64,000 nt of DNA, from NCBI RefSeq assembly GCF_017409525.1, contig NZ_JAFQSO010000007.1, forward strand, positions 26,826 through 90,825. Direction: 5' to 3'. This DNA is from Methanobrevibacter sp. (GTDB taxonomy: Archaea; Methanobacteriota; Methanobacteria; Methanobacteriales; Methanobacteriaceae). The notes under the pieces were generated by a model. It was given only the letters and a program-made list of their open reading frames with translations, had not been told where the DNA came from and did not search any database. A program made the position numbers and the translations under genes. Positions within the stretch are counted from its first letter, which is position 1. Every line of letters starts with the position of its first letter. Below, in pieces: positions 13,194 through 25,714 of the stretch.

Positions 13194-13233
13194 AAATTAA
13201 AATCTCCACTAATTATATTATTATTTAGTGATG

Positions 13234-13317
13234 TTATTGTTTAAATAAATATCCGAAAATTAGAAAAATTCTTTAATAAAAAAAGTCAAGTTTAATGTCT
13301 TATGCAGAGAATAAATC
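13234..13317. repeat. Direct repeat copy 1 (left of NRPS); includes a candidate TATA element for the GT4-aroK operon
   Basis: ttattgtttaaataaatatccgaaaattagaaaaattctt (40 bp) is identical to 25629..25668; close similarity continues for about 45 bp more. Confidence 0.9.
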
Positions 13318-13634: not shown

Positions 13635-13639
13635 GGAGG
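13635..13639 (+). promoter_or_regulatory. Ribosome-binding site of the NRPS
   Basis: GGAGG 7 nt upstream of the TTG start at 13647. Confidence 0.75.
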
Positions 13640-13646
13640 CCATATA

Positions 13647-16600
13647 TTGAATTATTATCAAGATGTTAAATTTATATTGAATGTTGATGTTAATGAGAAT
13701 TCAATAGAAAATGCCTTTAACAAGGCAAAAAACATTTTGAATTGGAGGATTGATGAAAATTCTAATGCAATCCTAATCGATGAGGAAGTCGATTATCAGA
13801 TTAAGGATGTTTCCAATTTAAAAGAAACCTCTGTTGAGGAAATTATAGATTCATTTTTTGATTTTACATTTGATGATATTATTGATGTTCCACTTTACAG
13901 ATTTCTAGTATTGAAAAACAATGAAAATTTTACAATTTTAGCAAACATCAACTCACTAATATTCGACTATTCCTCAATAAATGATTTCTATGAATTATTT
14001 GATAATTCTGAAAAATCTCCTCCAAAATTCAATCTGGATTCATATTATAAGGATGTTCAAGTTTACCTAAAATCTTCCGATTTTGAAAATGAATCCCGTT
14101 ATTGGAAAAACTACGTCCTAAACTCTAGCAAGCATATCAAATTCTACAACATAAAACATGACCATTATAAGAGCCAAAAAATTAATCCTGATATGAATTC
14201 CGTTTCCAGATTCATTAAAAATCATGATTGTACTTTATTTGATTTTTATGGAAGCATATTCTCACTATACTTGTCCCGCATTGACAGACTGGACGGATGT
14301 TTATTAAAAACTATTGTCCCCCGAAAAACTGATTTACAGATATTTGATAAAAATACTCTTTTTAAAGTTGATGTAAATGACCATGATTCATTCGATGATT
14401 TGTTGGATGAATTCGAATCAGCTTTAAAAAATGCTGTTGATAATACTAAAGTTGATGTTGACAATTATTTGGGTGAAAATGTCTCTTATTATACAATTTA
14501 TGATTTTTATGATTTAAATGAAAACATTAGTGTTTATAATGGAGAGGATTCAGCTTTAACATTGAACATTTATGAAAACTCATTGGAATTGCTTTACAAT
14601 TCAGACCTGTTTTCAGATGAATATATTGGGCGTATGGCAAAAAATATTGAAAGTTTGATTGATAATGTTTTAAATTCTCCTAATGCCGCAACAAGTGATA
14701 TTGATATCCTTTCAGAGGATGAAAAAAAGTTACTTCTTGATTTTTATAAGGGAATTGAAGATGATATTGACAAAGAGTTTATACTCAGCAAATATTTCCG
14801 CCATATTGCAATCAGTAATCCAGATATTATTGCTGTTGATGACGGTGTTGATCGGATAAGCTATGGTGAGCTGGAAAAATCAAGCAATTCAATTGCAAAT
14901 GATTTATTTGAGAATTACAATATTTCTTTAGGAAGTCATGTTGCTTTATTATTGCCTCGCAATTATCATTTTCTTGAATTGGTTTTAGCTTTAAATAAAA
15001 TTGGAGCCACATTCGTCCCAATAGATCTTACATATCCGATTAAACGTATTGAGCACATGTTGGAGATTTCTGAATCCGTGTGCATTGTCACTACTGAAGA
15101 TATTGCAAATAAATCTGATTTTAATCTAAATGTGGTTTGCATTGAAGACTTAAATTATGATGATGATGCTGATGTTGATATAATCTCTAGAAGCGAGGAT
15201 TTATTTTCTATAATGTTCACATCAGGAACTACAGGTCTTCCAAAGGGAGTGATGGTTTCCAATTATCAGATGGGTAGTTTAAGTATTGCTTTTAAACACC
15301 TCTTTTCTTTTTCATGTGGCGAGACTGCCGGATGTTATGTAAGTTTCAGTTTTATTGCATCATATATGGCTTATGTTGTATTGGCATTGGGGGGATGTGT
15401 CAGGATATTCAATGAAAATGAGCAGAAAAACAGCTTATTGATAATAGAAGCCCTTAAAGAAACACCAATGAATAATTTGATTTTACCTCCGACCATCGGC
15501 GTTCCTATTTATGACAATGAAGATTTGAAATTGGACTATCTTATTTTGGCAGGTGCAAAATTAAATGAACTAAGTAAACGGGACAGACATACCAAATTAG
15601 TTAATTTTTATGGCACAACAGAATTGATTTTAACAATTAGTAAAATTTATAATTTGAATGATGTTAAAGATAATCGTGTGCCCGTTGGTAAGCCTGTTGC
15701 TAACACATGGGTTTATGTTTTAGATGAAAATAGTAATATAATGCCTATTGGAGTTCCAGGAGAGTTATGTGTTTCCGGTGAAATTGTAAGTTCAGGATAT
15801 TACAATAATCCTGAATTAACAAATCAATTTTTTGTAGACAATCCAATCGCTGACAGTGAAAGTAATGGAATAATGTATCGTACCGGAGATATAGGATTTT
15901 ACAATCCGGAGGGAGAAATTGAAATTATTGGACGTGAAGACGATCAGTTGTCTGTCAGAGGTTTTCGTGTCGAATCAAATGAAATTCTTATCATAATGAA
16001 GAAATTTAAAGAAATTTCAGACGTTTATTTGGATGTTGATAATGACAACCTGATTGCATACTATACAACAAATGCCGAGTTGGACATAAATGAAGTTAAA
16101 GAAAATTTAGAAGATAATTTGCCTAGTTACATGATTCCTTCCCTTTTCATTGAATTGGATGAAATTCCATTAAATCTCAATGGAAAAATCGATAAATCTT
16201 CATTAAAAACAGCTTTAGATAATGATAACATTGAAATAACTGATGAAGTTATCAGCCATGTTGTTAATGCATTTAAAGAGGTTTTAAATATTGATTCTGT
16301 TTTCATTGATGATGATTTTGTTGGCAGAGGGGGCAATTCATTGTCTGCAATGAAATTACAATTATTATTGAAAGAAAAATTGGGCGTTAATTTATCCTCA
16401 AATGAAATAATAAGTCTTTCCACACCAAAAGACATCAGCAATCATATTAAATATAATATGAATATTCATTCGGCTCTTTATGAAGACAAATATCTGTTTG
16501 ATGAACCATGTCCTCTATCAGAATCACAATTAAACGTTTATCTTGATGAAAGTGTAAATGATATGGGCACAGCATACAACAATCCATTTAAAATAAAGTT

Positions 16601-19600
16601 AAAAGACAATTATTCCGTTAGTGAACTTAAAAATGCATTAATTAAATTGTTTGAAGTATTTCCTATTTTAAAAGCTCGTGTCTTTAGCGATGATGGAATT
16701 CTGTCCTTTGCATTTGATGCAGAACCTGAAATTAATGAAGGACATCTGAATGACATTAACTCTTTTGTCAAATCCTTTGAATTCGACAAATATTTATCCA
16801 GATTTTTAATTGTTGAAAATAAGCAATCTGTTATATTATGCGCTGATTTCCATCATTTGATTTTTGACGGCACATCATTGAACATCTTACTAGATGTCCT
16901 GTTTTCGATTTTGAATGGAGAAGATGTTGATTTTGTTGATTATGGGGTGTTAAAACAGGTTTTATTTGAAGAAAATATCGATTCAAATTATATGGATAAT
17001 GCCCATGAATTCTTTGATGAAATGCTGGCTGATAATGATGAGGTTTATGATTTACTGCCTTCTCTAAAAAGCAGTGAAGATGAATTTGAATTGGTAGATA
17101 CAATAGAGCTGGATGCGGAATATTTAAATTCATTCTTACAAAAGCATTCCATTACACATAATCAGTTCTTCGCTAGCGTTTTTGCATATGCCTTATCAAG
17201 ATTCAGCGGTTCGAATAAGGTTCTTTTCAATATTATAGATGACGGCAGAGGCAATATTGATTTGTCAGAGTCTGTAGGAATGTTCGTTAAAACATTGCCC
17301 GTCCTATTGGACTGCACAAATCAGAATGTTGATTCTTTTTTAGATTATTCTTCCACTTTGATTAATTCTGTAATGAAATATGATTTGTATCCTTTCCGTC
17401 TTTTGGCTAGTGAATATGATTTAAATTCAAATATCTTATTCCAATATTCCCATGATCTTTTTAATGACATGCTAAATAAAGAAGATTCAAAATATGGTAT
17501 TGAAGAATTGGAACATGATTTGAATGCAGATTTATCTTTATCTATTTTCAACGCTGGCGAAGATAGATTAATGATTAGGACTTTATATTCATCATTATAT
17601 TCTAAAGATTTCATTGAGCATTTTGTTGAATCTTATAAGCTAATTCTGCAGGATATAATTGAAGTTGAAGAATTAAAAGACATCAATTATACTGCAGGTG
17701 TTGATTTTGAGCTTTTAGACAGTTATAATCAGACTGGACATTCCTTGATTTATGAGGATATTTTGGATGCTTTTAATGACAATCTTGCCAAATATCCTAA
17801 AAACAATCTTGTAAGTTACAATGATAATGTTTACAGTTATGATGAAGGCGCTTTCATAGCCGATAAGATAGCCGACAGTTTAAGAAGTTTTGGTGTTGGA
17901 AAAGGGGAAAATGTCGCATTTTTAGTTGAAAGATCTGAATTATACATTTTCAGCATTTTAGGTATTCTGTCTGCCGGAGCGGTTTATGTTCCTTTGGATG
18001 ATAGTTTGCCTGATGAGCGTTTAAGTTTTATGTTGAGGGATACTAACTCTAAGGTTGTTATTGTTAGTGATGAAACTAGTGAACGTGCATTTAATTTGGG
18101 TGGTAATTGTATTACTTTAAATATTTCTGAGATTGTCAATGATGAAATTGGTATATTGTCTTGTTTGCCTGTTGTTTATAGTGATTTAGCTTGTATTTTA
18201 TACACTAGTGGTACTACTGGCGTTCCTAAAGGTGTAAAAATTACCCGCAAATCTGTAATTAATTTATCAAATTATTTTGCTGAGGATTATCCTTTTGATA
18301 ATTTAGATGTGTGTGGTTTGTATCCTTCCATTGGTTTTGATGCAGCTTCTCAATCAATATTCAAAACTATTTATGCAGGTGCTTCTCTGGTTATTATTCC
18401 AGATGACATTAAATTAGATATGATAAGGATGAATGATTATTTCTTAAAGTATAATGTCACATACTCTGCAATTCCTACTCAAGTAGCTAAACTTTTCATG
18501 CAAACTGTTGAGGATACTTCTTTAAAGAGTTTATCAATTGGTGGTGAAAAATTAGGTGAGTTTGAAAATCCTTTAAATCATATGTTAATTGATGAATTTG
18601 GACCTACTGAAGCATTTGCTTTTATCTCATCAATTGACAATTCTAAAAAAATTGATTCGTCCTCAGTAGGATTCCTAAATTACAATACAAAAACTTATAT
18701 TTTAGATAATGAATTTAGACAAGTGCCAATTGGTGCTGTCGGTGAATTGTATTTGGCAGGTTATCAAATAGCTGATGGATATCTAAATCGTGAAGAAGAA
18801 AATATCAAATCATTTATTGAAAATCCATTTGATGATAGTGTTGATTATGGTGTTTTGTATCGTACTGGCGATATGGTGCGTTTATTGCCTGATGGGTCTT
18901 TGGGTCTTGTTGGTCGTCGTGACAGTCAAGTTAAAATCAGTGGAAATCGTGTAGAATTATCAGAAATTGAATCGGTAATTCGTGAAATTGATTATATTAC
19001 GGATGTGACAGTTCAAACTATCAAACATATGGATAATTATGAATTGGTGGCTTATGTTGTAGCATCTGATGAATCTGATGATGAAACTCTAAAAGAGCAT
19101 GTTCGTGATTATGTTGCTCAATTTAAACCAGGTTATATGATTCCTTCATTTGTTGTCCGTTTGGACAGTATCCCTCTTAATATCAATGGTAAAATCGATT
19201 ATAGGCATCTGCCTGAAGTTGATTTGGACAGTTTGCGTGTGGAGTATGTTGCTCCAAATAATGAAATTGAAAAACAAATAGCCAATGCATTTGAGATTGT
19301 ATTTAATCAAAAAGACATTGGATTAAACGATGACTTTGTTCGTCTTGGCGGAGATTCCATCACTGCCATTCGTGTTGTTTCACTCTTGGAGAAAAATGAC
19401 ATTAACTGTGGTGCTGGAGATATATTGAATTATAAAACTCCATATTTGATTGCTCAAAATGTTGGCAGCATAGAGAAAGTTGCATACGATGCAGTAGAGG
19501 GAATTATGGATTTGCTTCCTATTCAGGAGTATTTCTTTGATCAAATTAACGAGGATGAATTTTCACAACACTTTATCTTAAAATCCTCAGAAAAAATAGA

Positions 19601-22600
19601 TATAAATACATTACAAGAATCTTTTGATGAATTATGCAATGTTCATGACATGCTTCGTACAAAATACAGCTATGATGAAAATGGAAAAGTAATACAGGAA
19701 ATATTGCCCGTGAATACCCAAATCCGTGAAATAGGTGAACATAATATCACCGAGAATCTTGAAGAATCACTGAAAGCAATCTATATAAAATCATTCAAAT
19801 CACTTAGCATAAAGAATAAGTTAATTGAAATCAATTTAATCCATCACAATAACGAATCCTACCTCATGTTCATCATCCATCATTTAATCATAGACGGAGT
19901 AAGCTGGAACATTCTAATCACAGATCTAACCCACATCTACACCAATTTAAAACAAGGAAAAGAAATTGAACTTTTAAGGCCGTATCCTTATAAAAATTGG
20001 GTGGAAGATGTTAGATATTTGGCTGAAAATATCAGTTATGAAGAAAAACAGCACTGGACAAAATTAAACCGACAAATTGATGATTCTACTATCAAAGGAG
20101 ATAATAAACCATTTGCGTTAGATTTTGATGTGAATTATGATGCGGATAATCTTTTGATGTTGTCTGAAGAGGAATATTGGGCCTTAGCAATCGCAAGAGC
20201 ATATAAAAAGACATATGGAAAAGAGTTAATATTAAACCGTGAGAGCCATGGCCGTGATGAGAGTATTGCAAAACTTAACAGAACAATAGGATGGTTCACA
20301 AGCCAATACCCAATACTAATCAACACAAACAACAAAAATGACAACATTTCCATAATGAACGATGTCTACAACATCAAAACAGCACTCAGAGACGTTAAAA
20401 ATTTAGGTTTGAATTATTCCTCCTTAATCTACACAACAAAAGAATTAGAATTCAAGCACTGCCCAGTAACCTTCAATTTCCTAAGCAGCGAATTTGCATT
20501 CGAAAACGAACTATTTGAATCATACATTCCAAAATCGGCTTCTAATGAGGAAATAAACATTAAACAAGACCCTACCTCTTATGGTATCACATTCAATATT
20601 GCTCGCAATGCTGATTCGTATATGGTTAGTGGGGATTATGCAGATAATACTTACATAGGCAATGATTTCAATGTTTTCATTAAAAATATCGAATCTGAAT
20701 TGAAATTCCTTGGCAATTATACATTCAAGGACAATAACATTGTTTGTTGTTTGTCTGAGTCTCAATTGGGCATTTATCTGGATGAAAAAGTGCATGAAAA
20801 AGATACTGCATATTCAGCACATGGAATTTTCGAATATGATGCCAAATATACGACTGAGAACATTAAAGATGCCATTCATGCTTTAATTAATAGGCATCCC
20901 ATCTTAAAAGGCCGAATTTTAGACACTGAAAACCTGCCTCTTTTAATTTGTGACAGCTATCCAACAATTGAAATAATCAATACGACAGATTATTCAAATC
21001 TAATCAAAGCATTCGATTTAGATAAATTCTTAGCGCGTTTTTACATCTTAGATAATGAGCAAAAGAAATTTGTATTTTATGATATGCACCATATCATTAG
21101 TGATGCAACCAGCTGTACAATCATTAATAAAGAATTACGGCAAGCTTTATTGGGCAAATTAGATGATAATGTGGATTTGGGCTTTGCTTATGCCAGCCGA
21201 AATTCATTTGAATCCCACTACAATCATAAATATGAATCCTCTCAGAAATTCTTCCATGATGAATTTGCCGACATTGATGAAATCCAACATCTTTTAAGTG
21301 ACCTTGATGGAGATAAAGGTAGTGTTAGTCTTCCTATTAGGGGCGTTCGTGATGATATTGAAACATTTACGGAAAATATTGGCATTAGTGTTGGCAGTTT
21401 ATTGAATGCTGCATTTGCATATACATATTCACGTTTCATAGGTGGCAACAAGGTTTACTATAACTTTACTGAACATGGCCGGCATGAAGATTACTCACAA
21501 AATGCAATTGGAATGTTTGTGCGAACAATACCAATCATTGCAAATTGTGAAAATAAATCGATTAATGATTACTTGACCAATATGTCTGATTTAATCTTAA
21601 ACTCAATGACAAACAGCATATATCCATTTAGATTGCTTGCAAAAGAATACAATTTAAGTATCGATGTTGCATTTGAGTATAATCATGATTTGAATGATTT
21701 CGATATTGGCAATGATTTGGTGGCAAGTGATGATGCTGACGGCATTAGCGATTTCTTATGTGTCGTCAATGACCTGGAAGACGGATTTGTCGTGACTGTA
21801 AGCCATTTAGATAAATTCAGCCAACATACAGCAAAACAATTCGTTAAAGCATTCAAAGAGGTGTTGGTCCAATTTTTAGAAAAAGAAAAACTAGAGGACA
21901 TCAGTTATATCTCCAATGAAGACATTGAACTTTTAGACAGTTATAATAAAACACAATGTCCTTTAAAGTATTGTGATATTTTGGATGCATTCAATGACAA
22001 TCTTGCCAGATACCCAAAAAACAGCCTGGTAACCTATAAAAATAATAGTTATACATATGATGAAAGTGCATTCATCGCCAATAAAATAGCAAACGATTTG
22101 AAGAAGATGGGCATTAATAAAAATGACAATGTTGCATTTTTAGTTGAGAGATCAGAATTATACCTGTTCACCATTTTAGGAATTCTATCCACCGGAGCAA
22201 CATACGTTCCTTTGGATGATGCCCTTCCGGATGAACGCATAAAGTTCATGATGGATGATGCTGATGCTGAAGTTGTTATTGTCTGTGATGATACTTACAA
22301 TCGTGCTAAAAATCTATCAGAGGAAAACAGACTTCTAAATATTTCAAACATTATCAAAGAAAATATTGGAACTTCTTCTAAGTTGGATGTTACTTATAGC
22401 GATTTGGCCTGTATCTTATACACCAGCGGCACTACAGGCATTCCTAAAGGAGTTAGAATAACACGCAAAGCTATTTTAAATCTTTCACAAACATACTGTG
22501 ACACATATGATTTTGGTCGGAATGATGTTTATGCTTTATATTCAAATATCGGATTTGACGCCGGATCTCAAGCAATCCTTCAAACAACATATGCCGGAGC

Positions 22601-25115
22601 TTCTTTAACTGTAATTCCTGAGGATATTAAATTTAATATTACTAAGTTGAATGAACATTTCATTAAACAGAATGTTACCCATACTTTTATTTCCACACAG
22701 GTCGCTAAACTGTTCATGGAGCAAATTGACAATACCTCATTAAGGATTTTATCAGTAGGCGGTGAGAAGTTAGGTAAATTCGAAAGTCCAAAAGATTATC
22801 GTTTAATTGATGCATACGGTCCAACCGAAACATTTGCATTCATATCTTCTATCGACAATGACGATAAAAAGGATGGGTCTTCAGCAGGCATGCTAAACGA
22901 AAATACTCGCGCGTATATTTTGGATGATAATTTCAGACGTGTTCCTGTCGGTGCTGTTGGTGAATTATGCTTAGCAGGTTACCAAATTGCCGACGGATAC
23001 CTAAACCGCCCAGAAGAAAACGCCAAAGCATTCATCAACAATCCATTTGATGATAAAGAAGGCTACAGCATATTGTATCGCACGGGAGATATGGTTCGGT
23101 TATTGCCTGATGGGTCATTGGGCATTGTTGGCCGTCGTGACAGCCAAGTTAAAATCAGAGGAAACCGTGTGGAACTGACAGAGGTTGAATCTGCAATAAG
23201 AGACATGGATTATATTAAAGATGTTACAGTCCAAATCACTTCAAATAATGGAAATAATGAATTAATTGCCTATATTGTACTGTCTGACGGTTTTTACGGA
23301 GATGACATTGATAATTCTGTTCGCGAATTCGTATCCAAATGCAAACCGAATTATATGGTTCCGTCATATGTAATAACATTGTATGAAATTCCTTTAAATG
23401 TAAACGGCAAAGTTGATAAGCGTGCTTTGCCCGATGTTGACATAGATAGTTTACGTGATAAATATGTCGCACCAAGAAACAAAAATGAAAAAGAAATTGT
23501 CGAAGCCTTTAAAAAAGCATTAAATTTAGAAAAAGTCAGTATATATGATGATTTCATTCGTTTAGGTGGAGATTCATTGACTGCAACTAAGTTATCATCC
23601 TATGTTAAGTCTGATGATGTCACTATGGCGGATATCTTCACTTTCCGCACTCCCGAGGCAATTGCAAAGAATATCTCTGAATACTCATTTGATTTGGATA
23701 TTTATTCTTTAGAAGATGGTTGTCCTTTGAATTCTGCGCAAAGTGATGTAATTGCAGATATAATAGGTTATAATAAATCGGATGCTTATCATGTAATAAG
23801 TTATATTCCTATCTCTAAGAAATATGATCTTGAAAAAATACTTAGTTCATTAGATGAGATGTTAAATATGCATCCGGTTTTAAGCATGCGCTTGAGTGAG
23901 CGGCATGATGAAAGTGATACTGATGTATCTAATCGAGATGCGCTTAATGATTTAATGAGAACTGCTAAAAAATTCGGAACCAAAAAATTCCTGAACATTA
24001 TCAACGGATATGGAATAAAAGATATTTGCGGTCTTTACAATATGCTTAGAACCCTTATAAGGTTGTTTAAAGGAGAGTATCCGTATTTAGTGAAAGGAAA
24101 TAAACCCCCAATTTCAGTGGAATCCAAATTTGATAGGGATGTTTTAATTGATTTCCTTTCTGAAAGTTTCGATATCTATGATTGTTTATCTAAGTTCATG
24201 ATTATTGAATCTGAGGATTCCTATTATTTATTTTGTGTGGTTCATCATCTCATTTTTGATGCAGTTTCAGCAGGAGTATTCAAAAGTGATTTCATGACGC
24301 TTCTTGACGGAGGAAGCATCGATTTTGATGACGGATTTTTAAAGGCATCTGCTTTTACTCATCAAATGAAAAGAACCGGAAAATTCAATGAAGCAAGGGA
24401 ATTTTATCACAATATTCTGTCAAATCTTGATGATGTAGACTTTTTACTGGAAGATAATCCTTCAGCTGAAGGTTATAATATGTCAACATATGATTTGGAT
24501 TTTGATAAAAAGGCATTCAAATCCTTTTTAAATAATGCTGGAATTAGTGAATACGTATTATTTATCGCTGTATTTTCTTATGCATTGTCCCAATTTGTAA
24601 ATGGTGATAAAGCCCAATTTATAATGAATGAAAATGGACGTGACAGATTCAACGAGAAATTCATATCCATGACCTCCAACCTGGTGCCGGTAGTTATAGA
24701 CTGCAAAGATCAAAGCATCAATTCATTTATTAGAGATGCCGCAGATACTGTTTACAAATCATTGAGATATAGCTATTATCCAACTTTCCTGCTTTATCCG
24801 AAATACGACTTTGAAAGAGATATAGCATTCCAATTTGTACCCAACTGGATTGCAGACGATTTTGATAGTTTTGAGAATATTGATGATATGGGTGCAGGAG
24901 AAATTATTAATCAAGTCCTTAATGATTTCAATGATTTTGTAACGGAATTATTTGTTCAAGTTCACCAAAACGGTGATGATTACAGGTTAATTATCTCACA
25001 TTCAAACAAATATTCCCAAAAGATGATTAATGACTTCAAAGACACTTACACATCAATTTTATCAAATATTATTAATGCATCCATGTCCTCTGATTTAAGC
25101 AGCACTTTGAAATAG
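13647..25115 (+). CDS. Three-module non-ribosomal peptide synthetase: C*-A-T-C-A-T-E-C-A-T-C, no TE
   Basis: Three A domains (FTSGTTGLPKG, YTSGTTGVPKG, YTSGTTGIPKG; YRTGD; NGK). Three carrier serines (GGNS 16338, GGDS 19356, GGDS 23574). C motifs HHLIFDG 16851, HHIISDA 21087, HHLIFDA 24243. E domain HHLIIDGVSW 19878 with ESHGRD and RTIGWFT. Confidence 0.96.
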   Translation: MNYYQDVKFILNVDVNENSIENAFNKAKNILNWRIDENSNAILIDEEVDYQIKDVSNLKETSVEEIIDSFFDFTFDDIIDVPLYRFLVLKNNENFTILANINSLIFDYSSINDFYELFDNSEKSPPKFNLDSYYKDVQVYLKSSDFENESRYWKNYVLNSSKHIKFYNIKHDHYKSQKINPDMNSVSRFIKNHDCTLFDFYGSIFSLYLSRIDRLDGCLLKTIVPRKTDLQIFDKNTLFKVDVNDHDSFDDLLDEFESALKNAVDNTKVDVDNYLGENVSYYTIYDFYDLNENISVYNGEDSALTLNIYENSLELLYNSDLFSDEYIGRMAKNIESLIDNVLNSPNAATSDIDILSEDEKKLLLDFYKGIEDDIDKEFILSKYFRHIAISNPDIIAVDDGVDRISYGELEKSSNSIANDLFENYNISLGSHVALLLPRNYHFLELVLALNKIGATFVPIDLTYPIKRIEHMLEISESVCIVTTEDIANKSDFNLNVVCIEDLNYDDDADVDIISRSEDLFSIMFTSGTTGLPKGVMVSNYQMGSLSIAFKHLFSFSCGETAGCYVSFSFIASYMAYVVLALGGCVRIFNENEQKNSLLIIEALKETPMNNLILPPTIGVPIYDNEDLKLDYLILAGAKLNELSKRDRHTKLVNFYGTTELILTISKIYNLNDVKDNRVPVGKPVANTWVYVLDENSNIMPIGVPGELCVSGEIVSSGYYNNPELTNQFFVDNPIADSESNGIMYRTGDIGFYNPEGEIEIIGREDDQLSVRGFRVESNEILIIMKKFKEISDVYLDVDNDNLIAYYTTNAELDINEVKENLEDNLPSYMIPSLFIELDEIPLNLNGKIDKSSLKTALDNDNIEITDEVISHVVNAFKEVLNIDSVFIDDDFVGRGGNSLSAMKLQLLLKEKLGVNLSSNEIISLSTPKDISNHIKYNMNIHSALYEDKYLFDEPCPLSESQLNVYLDESVNDMGTAYNNPFKIKLKDNYSVSELKNALIKLFEVFPILKARVFSDDGILSFAFDAEPEINEGHLNDINSFVKSFEFDKYLSRFLIVENKQSVILCADFHHLIFDGTSLNILLDVLFSILNGEDVDFVDYGVLKQVLFEENIDSNYMDNAHEFFDEMLADNDEVYDLLPSLKSSEDEFELVDTIELDAEYLNSFLQKHSITHNQFFASVFAYALSRFSGSNKVLFNIIDDGRGNIDLSESVGMFVKTLPVLLDCTNQNVDSFLDYSSTLINSVMKYDLYPFRLLASEYDLNSNILFQYSHDLFNDMLNKEDSKYGIEELEHDLNADLSLSIFNAGEDRLMIRTLYSSLYSKDFIEHFVESYKLILQDIIEVEELKDINYTAGVDFELLDSYNQTGHSLIYEDILDAFNDNLAKYPKNNLVSYNDNVYSYDEGAFIADKIADSLRSFGVGKGENVAFLVERSELYIFSILGILSAGAVYVPLDDSLPDERLSFMLRDTNSKVVIVSDETSERAFNLGGNCITLNISEIVNDEIGILSCLPVVYSDLACILYTSGTTGVPKGVKITRKSVINLSNYFAEDYPFDNLDVCGLYPSIGFDAASQSIFKTIYAGASLVIIPDDIKLDMIRMNDYFLKYNVTYSAIPTQVAKLFMQTVEDTSLKSLSIGGEKLGEFENPLNHMLIDEFGPTEAFAFISSIDNSKKIDSSSVGFLNYNTKTYILDNEFRQVPIGAVGELYLAGYQIADGYLNREEENIKSFIENPFDDSVDYGVLYRTGDMVRLLPDGSLGLVGRRDSQVKISGNRVELSEIESVIREIDYITDVTVQTIKHMDNYELVAYVVASDESDDETLKEHVRDYVAQFKPGYMIPSFVVRLDSIPLNINGKIDYRHLPEVDLDSLRVEYVAPNNEIEKQIANAFEIVFNQKDIGLNDDFVRLGGDSITAIRVVSLLEKNDINCGAGDILNYKTPYLIAQNVGSIEKVAYDAVEGIMDLLPIQEYFFDQINEDEFSQHFILKSSEKIDINTLQESFDELCNVHDMLRTKYSYDENGKVIQEILPVNTQIREIGEHNITENLEESLKAIYIKSFKSLSIKNKLIEINLIHHNNESYLMFIIHHLIIDGVSWNILITDLTHIYTNLKQGKEIELLRPYPYKNWVEDVRYLAENISYEEKQHWTKLNRQIDDSTIKGDNKPFALDFDVNYDADNLLMLSEEEYWALAIARAYKKTYGKELILNRESHGRDESIAKLNRTIGWFTSQYPILINTNNKNDNISIMNDVYNIKTALRDVKNLGLNYSSLIYTTKELEFKHCPVTFNFLSSEFAFENELFESYIPKSASNEEINIKQDPTSYGITFNIARNADSYMVSGDYADNTYIGNDFNVFIKNIESELKFLGNYTFKDNNIVCCLSESQLGIYLDEKVHEKDTAYSAHGIFEYDAKYTTENIKDAIHALINRHPILKGRILDTENLPLLICDSYPTIEIINTTDYSNLIKAFDLDKFLARFYILDNEQKKFVFYDMHHIISDATSCTIINKELRQALLGKLDDNVDLGFAYASRNSFESHYNHKYESSQKFFHDEFADIDEIQHLLSDLDGDKGSVSLPIRGVRDDIETFTENIGISVGSLLNAAFAYTYSRFIGGNKVYYNFTEHGRHEDYSQNAIGMFVRTIPIIANCENKSINDYLTNMSDLILNSMTNSIYPFRLLAKEYNLSIDVAFEYNHDLNDFDIGNDLVASDDADGISDFLCVVNDLEDGFVVTVSHLDKFSQHTAKQFVKAFKEVLVQFLEKEKLEDISYISNEDIELLDSYNKTQCPLKYCDILDAFNDNLARYPKNSLVTYKNNSYTYDESAFIANKIANDLKKMGINKNDNVAFLVERSELYLFTILGILSTGATYVPLDDALPDERIKFMMDDADAEVVIVCDDTYNRAKNLSEENRLLNISNIIKENIGTSSKLDVTYSDLACILYTSGTTGIPKGVRITRKAILNLSQTYCDTYDFGRNDVYALYSNIGFDAGSQAILQTTYAGASLTVIPEDIKFNITKLNEHFIKQNVTHTFISTQVAKLFMEQIDNTSLRILSVGGEKLGKFESPKDYRLIDAYGPTETFAFISSIDNDDKKDGSSAGMLNENTRAYILDDNFRRVPVGAVGELCLAGYQIADGYLNRPEENAKAFINNPFDDKEGYSILYRTGDMVRLLPDGSLGIVGRRDSQVKIRGNRVELTEVESAIRDMDYIKDVTVQITSNNGNNELIAYIVLSDGFYGDDIDNSVREFVSKCKPNYMVPSYVITLYEIPLNVNGKVDKRALPDVDIDSLRDKYVAPRNKNEKEIVEAFKKALNLEKVSIYDDFIRLGGDSLTATKLSSYVKSDDVTMADIFTFRTPEAIAKNISEYSFDLDIYSLEDGCPLNSAQSDVIADIIGYNKSDAYHVISYIPISKKYDLEKILSSLDEMLNMHPVLSMRLSERHDESDTDVSNRDALNDLMRTAKKFGTKKFLNIINGYGIKDICGLYNMLRTLIRLFKGEYPYLVKGNKPPISVESKFDRDVLIDFLSESFDIYDCLSKFMIIESEDSYYLFCVVHHLIFDAVSAGVFKSDFMTLLDGGSIDFDDGFLKASAFTHQMKRTGKFNEAREFYHNILSNLDDVDFLLEDNPSAEGYNMSTYDLDFDKKAFKSFLNNAGISEYVLFIAVFSYALSQFVNGDKAQFIMNENGRDRFNEKFISMTSNLVPVVIDCKDQSINSFIRDAADTVYKSLRYSYYPTFLLYPKYDFERDIAFQFVPNWIADDFDSFENIDDMGAGEIINQVLNDFNDFVTELFVQVHQNGDDYRLIISHSNKYSQKMINDFKDTYTSILSNIINASMSSDLSSTLK

Positions 25116-25628
25116 GATTATGATGTCTGAAATTTTTAGTTTTTCTGAAAGTTATTGAATGGCTGTTTTTAAGTTGAACCACCTCACCTATAGAGGTCAA
25201 AGATTCCAAGATTTAATGATAATTAAGTATTTTCCGGGCAATTTTCGGTAAATTCCAACCTATTGAAATCAATGAACTCTAAACAGTATGAGAAGTCAGA
25301 ATAAATGTTAAAATGTAGTGGTGGTTGAAATAAAACACACATCGGGTAATTTTTATATTTGAAAAAAATAATAATTTATTAAGCATAATCTCAAGGATAT
25401 GATTTTGAAAAGTTTTTTCATTTATTTTTAGGATTTTGAATTTTGGAGACAATCATGCCATTGAATATAATTAAAGACAGGGAAGTATACAGCATATATG
25501 AATTAGCTTTCTAAACTATTTTTTATTTGAATTATCGTTTGTTTAAGGATATTACATATAAATATTAATAAATAATAAGGCACTACGGCTATAATCTAGA
25601 GAACTATAAAGTAGTGATAAATAGCATA

Positions 25629-25714
25629 TTATTGTTTAAATAAATATCCGAAAATTAGAAAAATTCTTAATAAAAAAAAGTCAAATTTAATGTCTTATTA
25701 CAGAGAAAAAAATC
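25629..25714. repeat. Direct repeat copy 2 (right of NRPS, downstream of cbiD)
   Basis: Matches 13234..13317: 40 identical bp, then a few substitutions and indels. Confidence 0.9.

Follow-up and report, generated by a model that had tools for sequence, protein, structure and literature searches.

Species of Methanobrevibacter encode many nonribosomal peptide synthetases (NRPSs) that are similar to those of Firmicutes and whose products are unknown (PMC2812497, PMC8024701, PMC8241843). Rumen Methanobrevibacter carry several NRPS clusters per genome (PMC8241843), and as of 2021 no product was known for any archaeal NRPS (PMC8024701). Among the closest described systems are Mru_0068 and Mru_0351 of M. 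ruminantium M1, archaeal NRPSs of presumed bacterial origin that begin with a condensation (C) domain and make unknown products (PMC2812497, PMC8024701). They end in a reductase/thioesterase-type release domain. We analyzed a 64,000-nucleotide stretch from Methanobrevibacter sp. (GCF_017409525.1, contig NZ_JAFQSO010000007.1, positions 26,826 to 90,825; hereafter the window), which encodes a similar NRPS that ends instead in a C domain. Its starter module consists of a condensation-like domain (C*), an adenylation domain (A1) and a carrier domain (T1). In our reading, to which we assign a probability of about 0.65, the acid with which A1 charges T1 is a hydrophobic carboxylic acid lacking an alpha-amine, C* is a structural remnant and the following domain, C2, makes the first amide bond.

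A1 is an NRPS-type adenylation domain by its core motifs and by PF00501, with the A3 (SGTTGxPKG), A5 (YGxTE), A7 (YxTGD), A8 (GRxDxQxKxxGxRxE) and A10 (NGKxD) motifs all present. Of the two residues expected in a domain that activates alpha-amino acids, Lys517 (GrsA numbering) is found as Lys847 in NGKID, and Asp235 is replaced by Ile570. Nucleotides 15342-15362 translate to SFSFIAS with codon 15354-15356 (ATT) encoding this Ile, and phmmer aligns the stretch to 'sfsfdgs' of LgrA with Ile on Asp, as an earlier note on this DNA had it. Anchoring on the A4, LPPT, AG(A/S), A5 and A10 motifs likewise reproduced the pocket code aligned there by eye, IAMIIAFLTK (I570 A571 M574 I612 I633 A635 F654 L662 T663 K847); the GrsA reference code is DAWTIAAICK (PMC11355689). 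The offsets between A1 and GrsA (335/334/332/330) fit the phmmer alignment to 1AMU, in which the two lengths differ by three residues. Transfer by MAFFT columns displaces position 239 by one residue in elongation domains (direct counting gives Gln at 239 in A2); codes for A1 are motif-anchored only, and alignments were used solely for position 235 and the A5 motif. The pocket is all hydrophobic (almost entirely so according to the note), its ten-residue code contains no acidic residue, and a compensating conserved acidic residue was not found in the pocket segments of the starter A domains.

The PDB sequences closest to A1, among its best 60 hits, are LgrA-A1, GrsA and TycA, which score 70, 85 and 84.7 bits over the pocket region. 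Three other identities were tried and rejected. A fatty-acyl-AMP ligase (FAAL) or acyl-CoA ligase fits less well: the top fatty-acid-CoA ligase model reaches 151 bits, TIGR01733 278. An aryl-acid domain of the DhbE/EntE type would have Asn rather than Ile at 235, and here the pocket lacks polar residues and the domain is integrated in a module; no DhbE/EntE-type entry occurs among the best 60 PDB hits. The beta-amino-acid type has an Asp at 236 that A1 lacks. As previously noted, there is no ketoreductase (KR) or short-chain dehydrogenase/reductase domain in the protein, whose Pfam domains are C, A, T and AMP-binding_C only. The spacing of 81 amino acids (aa) between A8 and A10 leaves no room for an insertion, and the Pfam lists of about 75 relatives contain no KR either.

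The loss of Asp235 extends to a whole family. We sampled this family mostly by a protein search with aa 1-940, which recovered a large group of NRPSs of 2100-6600 aa whose starter modules are 50-79% identical and whose number of downstream modules varies; homologues carrying a name belong to Methanobrevibacter. Starter-module scans of contig collections gave three usable loci from genome contigs and five from metagenome contigs. In the resulting A-domain set (54 family proteins plus the three other NRPS open reading frames, ORFs, of the window genome), Asp235 is present in 118/118 downstream A domains and in 0/55 family starters. Val (28) or Ile (22) occupies the position in 50 of the 55, Thr in three and Gly in two. 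Five starters whose A3 motif reads FTSGTSG or FTSGTMG are no exception: direct alignment shows that the Asp is missing in them too. Loss of Asp235 is a family trait and not a chance lesion. A maximum-likelihood tree of 174 A domains groups all 55 starters in a single clade (support 1.0) that has a stem of 1.14 substitutions/site and no intruders.

Other residues change together with Asp235. Pro325 is present in all 118 elongation domains and in none of the 55 starters, 47 of which have Thr; it adjoins Gly324, whose carbonyl binds the alpha-amine in PheA (1AMU). A second co-varying change in the starters turns the Glu of GGE into Ala. Pocket residues 239, 330 and 331 differ among subclades (e.g. 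IAVFVAFFGK, VAVIVAFCGK, IARIIAFMAK), while A3, the A5 Glu, the A7 Asp, A8, the A10 Lys and the T1 Ser do not vary across 54 relatives. The ratio of nonsynonymous to synonymous substitutions (dN/dS) of A1 is 0.13-0.17, the strongest constraint measured here. Because the pocket varies by subclade, the catalytic motifs are invariant and dN/dS is low, A1 behaves, judged from sequence, as a working specificity pocket and not as a dead domain. The earlier note's proposal that module 1 loads a hydrophobic non-amino acid is thus supported by an Asp loss that is both universal in and exclusive to starters, by the co-varying Pro325-to-Thr change and by the conserved catalytic motifs. One subclade (P0044, P0062, P0093, P0098, P0106, P0109, P0120) has Arg at 239 (code IARIIAF[MLI]AK), which points in these enzymes to a starter acid whose distal group is acidic or polar.

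The second peculiarity of the module lies in C*. Where HHxxxDG is expected it reads INSLIFDY, an observation of the earlier note that the translation and the phmmer alignment of 'laninslifd' to 'tsvhhiild' of SrfA-C bear out. The first His is replaced by Asn102, the catalytic second His by Ser103 and the Gly by Tyr108; Asp107 is retained. The sequence match to condensation domains is faint (Pfam E=5e-15, chiefly in the C-terminal part; PDB E=5e-4). An AlphaFold2 (AF2) model built from a 29-sequence family alignment (pLDDT 89.5, pTM 0.88) superposes over its whole length on C domains in Foldseek, with TMq 0.64-0.76 and E down to 1e-20. The matches comprise LgrA, Txo1/2, SrfA-C, the starter C domain of the CDA synthetase (CDA-C1) and, at ranks 35 and 45, the teicoplanin X domain; for LgrA, Txo, SrfA-C and CDA-C1 the TMq is 0.68-0.76. 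In the model, then, C* retains the full two-lobe condensation fold.

Across 40 full-length relatives the catalytic His position holds Ser in 28, Pro in eight, Glu in two, Lys in one and His in one, and the first His is present in 22. Mean pairwise identity is 45-50% for C* versus 59-65% for A1, T1 and C2, and its dN/dS of 0.24-0.32 indicates purifying selection. The description of C* as degenerate is therefore apt for its catalytic His, which is gone, and not for its fold, which is kept under selection. Measured against starter condensation (Cs) domains, C* has the N-terminal C fold and lacks the catalytic second His (Ser103); with X-type domains it shares a lost catalytic His combined with a retained fold and selective constraint.

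Relatives from rumen bacteria lie on a 3.86-Mb contig of GCA_000703065.1 (L002:10001-19810, L003:10001-19681) and in a Lachnospiraceae metagenome-assembled genome. They retain the same A1 code (VAVIVAFVAK), and their C* is reduced to the C-terminal lobe. Since these relatives keep only the C-lobe beside the same A1 code, and since C* is constrained despite having lost the catalytic His, the data point to a structural role of the C-lobe next to the A domain and disfavour catalysis or a whole-domain docking surface. The relatives without an N-lobe (P0064-P0066, P0076, P0077, P0079) come from rumen Firmicutes/Lachnospiraceae, and in the A-domain tree, whose tips are mostly metagenome proteins, they fall within the clade formed by full-length starters of the Methanobrevibacter type. 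Their placement hints at a derived loss of the N-lobe and possibly at transfer from archaea to bacteria.

From motif positions the domain order of the NRPS is C*-A1-T1-C2-A2-T2-E-C3-A3-T3-Cterm, and we propose that C*-A1-T1 would act as an amine-independent, acid-capping initiation module. A1 would be active, adenylating a hydrophobic acid without an alpha-ammonium group, because neither the Asp235 carboxylate nor any other acidic residue is left in the pocket, and would load it on Ser898 of T1. C* would perform no condensation, its catalytic His being gone, and would serve as a folded platform for A1 and T1. C2, with its intact HHLIFDG, would accept the T1-bound starter as donor and form the first amide between the cap and residue 2. 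Residue 2 would then be epimerised by the epimerisation (E) domain and residue 3 added, after which the terminal C domain may release an N-capped tripeptide with a D-residue.

Plain, keto and hydroxy acids are each chemically workable as starters because the alpha-substituent is not used in chain growth, and the substrate class can only be predicted from the pocket. A plain aryl-alkyl or branched short-chain acid, e.g. phenylpropionate, phenylacetate or isovalerate, is our tentative first choice. These three acids are common in the rumen. An alpha-keto acid is less likely and an alpha-hydroxy acid the least likely of the three. The A domains known to activate 2-keto acids have an aliphatic residue in place of Asp235 (PMC10949194, PMC13643306). 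Since GrsA and TycA are closest in the pocket region and A236, I299 and A301 are shared with the Phe code, the comparison tips the balance slightly towards an aryl-alkyl acid (phenylpropionate, phenylacetate, phenylpyruvate or phenyllactate); acids with a short branched chain are equally possible.

The single Sfp-type phosphopantetheinyl transferase (PPTase) in the genome counts in favour of acid loading by module 1. Several observations weigh against it. No precursor-supply or tailoring gene was found adjoining the NRPS gene. Known alpha-keto-acid modules carry a KR, which is missing here and in the roughly 75 relatives, and no keto-acid A-domain structure, StsA-type structures included, is among the best 60 PDB hits of A1. 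The closest solved relatives, GrsA, TycA and LgrA, all activate amino acids. Finally, we know of no specificity code that matches that of A1.

The activities of these relatives raise the question of whether A1 might still activate an ordinary or N-modified alpha-amino acid such as Phe, Leu or Val and tolerate its amine without Asp235. GrsA and TycA activate Phe and LgrA-A1 activates Val, and three code residues are common to A1 and the Phe code. Yet neither the code nor the pocket segments offer an acidic residue or a conserved replacement, the Asp loss that is universal in starters is absent from the 118 elongation domains of the same proteins, and an inactive starter C domain is sensible only where no amine needs acylating; we regard amino-acid activation as quite improbable. 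A catalytically dead or vestigial A1, with T1 loaded in trans or module 1 skipped, appears more improbable still. It would account for lesions at canonical residues in two domains of one module and for a TIGR01733 score of 278 bits, which makes this the best domain-level model for A1 and still falls below the 317-bit cut-off. However, A2 also stays below that cut-off (302 bits), and the ATP- and carboxylate-binding motifs (A3, A5 Glu, A7 Asp, A8, A10 Lys) show no variation in 54 relatives, under a dN/dS that speaks against decay. Since all catalytic motifs are conserved, we do not consider A1 dead.

The remaining alternative concerns C* and is compatible with acid loading by A1. C* may have been repurposed as an X-domain-like docking site that recruits a trans-acting enzyme (a reductase, aminotransferase or oxygenase) to modify the T1-bound starter, in which case the cap would be a processed keto or hydroxy acid and not the acid as loaded. 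In favour are the full C fold under purifying selection, although 39/40 relatives have lost the catalytic His, and the structural match to the teicoplanin X domain. Against this, no candidate partner gene lies in the flanks here or at two bacterial loci, although a partner might be encoded farther away, and the bacterial relatives drop the whole N-lobe while keeping the same A1, a better fit to a structural platform formed by C-lobe and A domain. We therefore consider docking unlikely and retain the view of C* as a structural remnant beside an acid-loading A1.

The coordinates of the gene and of the motifs discussed above are compiled in Table 1. No domain has been lost upstream of C*, because a GGAGG site precedes the TTG start codon with a spacing of 6 nucleotides (nt) and the homologues start at the same MNYY N-terminus.

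Table 1. Features of the NRPS gene and its starter module (window coordinates).
Feature	Position	Strand	Evidence or remark
NRPS ORF	13647..25115	+	3822 aa
Ribosome-binding site GGAGG (13636-13640) and TTG start codon (13647-13649)	13636..13649	+	sequence read
C*, N-terminal condensation-like domain, aa 1-375	13647..14771	+	Pfam Condensation E=5e-15; AF2; Foldseek
INSLIFDY, remnant of HHxxxDG	13947..13970	+	translation; phmmer alignment
A1, starter-module NRPS-type adenylation domain, aa 376-860	14772..16226	+	PF00501; TIGR01733
A3 P-loop motif FTSGTTGLPKG, intact	15216..15248	+	F524-K533 columns invariant
A4 motif SFSFIASYM; Ile570 (15354-15356) = 235, Ala571 = 236, Met574 = 239	15342..15368	+	
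A5 motif NFYGTTE; Phe654 = 322, Leu662 = 330, Thr663 = 331; Thr657 replaces Pro325	15603..15635	+	
A10 motif NGKID, intact; Lys847 = Lys517, invariant	16179..16193	+	
T1 carrier domain; GGNSL with phosphopantetheine-attachment Ser898 (16338-16340), invariant	16260..16448	+	PF00550, best stretch 872-934
C2, first catalytically competent condensation domain; HHLIFDG 16851-16871	16497..17816	+	Pfam E=3.8e-36

The NRPS gene is flanked by archaeal housekeeping genes encoding a thermosome, a Hel308-type helicase, ELP3, CbiD and an HMPTM radical-SAM enzyme; a gene for a reductase, acyl ligase or carrier was found neither in these flanks nor at the two bacterial loci. A 73-nt direct repeat (13231-13303 and 25626-25698, 93% identical) brackets the gene, which for this reason resembles an insertion of one gene. 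Since similar copies lie elsewhere in the genome (C7:111403-111488 and C5:81929-82022), the repeat may instead be a dispersed element of intergenic regions and not an att site specific to an island. Within the gene, modules 2 and 3 are internal duplicates (17667-18605 versus 21885-22823; 300-nt blocks 68-73% identical at a spacing of 4218 nt). Direct counting gives DAQASGEAFK and DAQFSGAAFK as their codes, neither of which matches a specificity code known to us.

The 2.11-Mb genome holds four NRPS ORFs in total. One of these, on contig C21, encodes a second NRPS of 4422 aa with the same C*-A(Ile235)-T start, the code IAVFVAFFGK and a terminal C domain. The remaining two encode proteins of 4190 aa (contig C21) and 2612 aa (contig C1). 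The latter, C-A-T-C-A-T-R in architecture and located about 5 kb from the sole Sfp-type PPTase, keeps the catalytic His (QHILLDG); it has Ile in the 235 column and the code IVEGIGSIAK, read from alignment columns rather than by motif anchoring. Within the genus, 23/102 species genomes carry the C* starter, and within the order 34/327 do; a single genome can have as many as nine copies. Because some congeners (G049, G046 and G057) hold five to nine C* starters, some within open frames of up to 19183 aa, this distribution indicates a strong lineage-specific expansion. A few C* copies in congeners contain internal stops. The multi-module relatives P0050, P0054 and P0078 are publicly annotated as 'D-alanine--poly(phosphoribitol) ligase subunit DltA', evidently a mis-call caused by the DltA model hitting an A domain.

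A non-amino cap would correct automated product predictions, which assume an amino acid and lipoinitiation, and would narrow mass-spectrometry searches to acyl-capped short peptides with D-residues. A1-T1 offers a small soluble construct for deorphanisation, and the feature as a whole a concrete handle on archaeal natural products. The gradation within the family from a complete but inactive C domain down to the C-lobe alone is a natural experiment on what a C domain gives its neighbouring A domain structurally. A wider interpretation, which we put forward as doubtful, is that one NRPS family, mobile and often consisting of a single gene, is common to methanogens of rumen and gut and to some Lachnospiraceae and initiates in a way of its own. 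A former lipoinitiation module would have been converted in it, with the A domain directly activating a free fermentation acid and the starter C domain left only as a scaffold. The acids would then come from the environment, e.g. phenylpropionate, phenylacetate or a branched volatile fatty acid. Archaea are not known to have fatty-acid donors bound to acyl carrier protein or coenzyme A. If this interpretation is true, archaea gain a route to N-capped D-amino-acid peptides and a secondary metabolism tied to the rumen acid pool, and the position of the bacterial genes without an N-lobe, nested among archaeal ones, would also mean that genes moved from archaea into bacteria.

How the module relates to characterized systems can be judged domain by domain. 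Asp235 loss and a dead starter C domain are not described for Methanobrevibacter NRPSs in PMC2812497, PMC8024701 or PMC8241843, and a full-text literature search found no description of such a starter module or of any Methanobrevibacter NRPS product. Like the glycopeptide X domain (4TX2/4TX3), C* conserves a C fold without condensation chemistry. The X domain, however, is C-terminal and recruits cluster-encoded P450s, whereas C* is N-terminal and has no partner genes nearby. The Cs domains of lipopeptide NRPSs (CDA-C1, 4JN5/5DU9; SrfA-A) likewise place a C fold before the first A-T (TMq 0.72-0.76). Their catalytic His is intact, and they N-acylate an amino acid loaded by a normal A domain with Asp235, whereas C* has Ser and precedes an A1 without the Asp.

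For A1, GrsA and TycA (1AMU, 5N81) have the closest solved single-domain pocket sequences, sharing A236, I299 and A301, and are initiation modules of Firmicute-type NRPSs. Both retain Asp235 and Pro325 and lack a C domain at the N-terminus, whereas A1 has Ile570 and Thr657 at these positions; residues 239, 278 and 322 are M, I and F in A1 versus W, T and A in GrsA/TycA. The code of A1 is also not known to resemble those of the alpha-keto-acid (Ak/KAL) domains. These domains (CesA/CesB of cereulide synthesis, StsA and CrpD-M2 of cryptophycin synthesis) resemble A1 in their aliphatic residue at 235 and hydrophobic pocket (PMC10949194, PMC13643306), but they belong to A-KR-T modules that feed ester formation, while the module described here has no KR in cis and is found only at the start. 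The starter clade is a second lineage of NRPS A domains that lack Asp235, and an independent one. The underlying chemistry has precedent; what is new is that an A domain without Asp235 is paired with a starter C domain that is folded and catalytically disabled, a combination fixed across an archaeal and rumen NRPS family.

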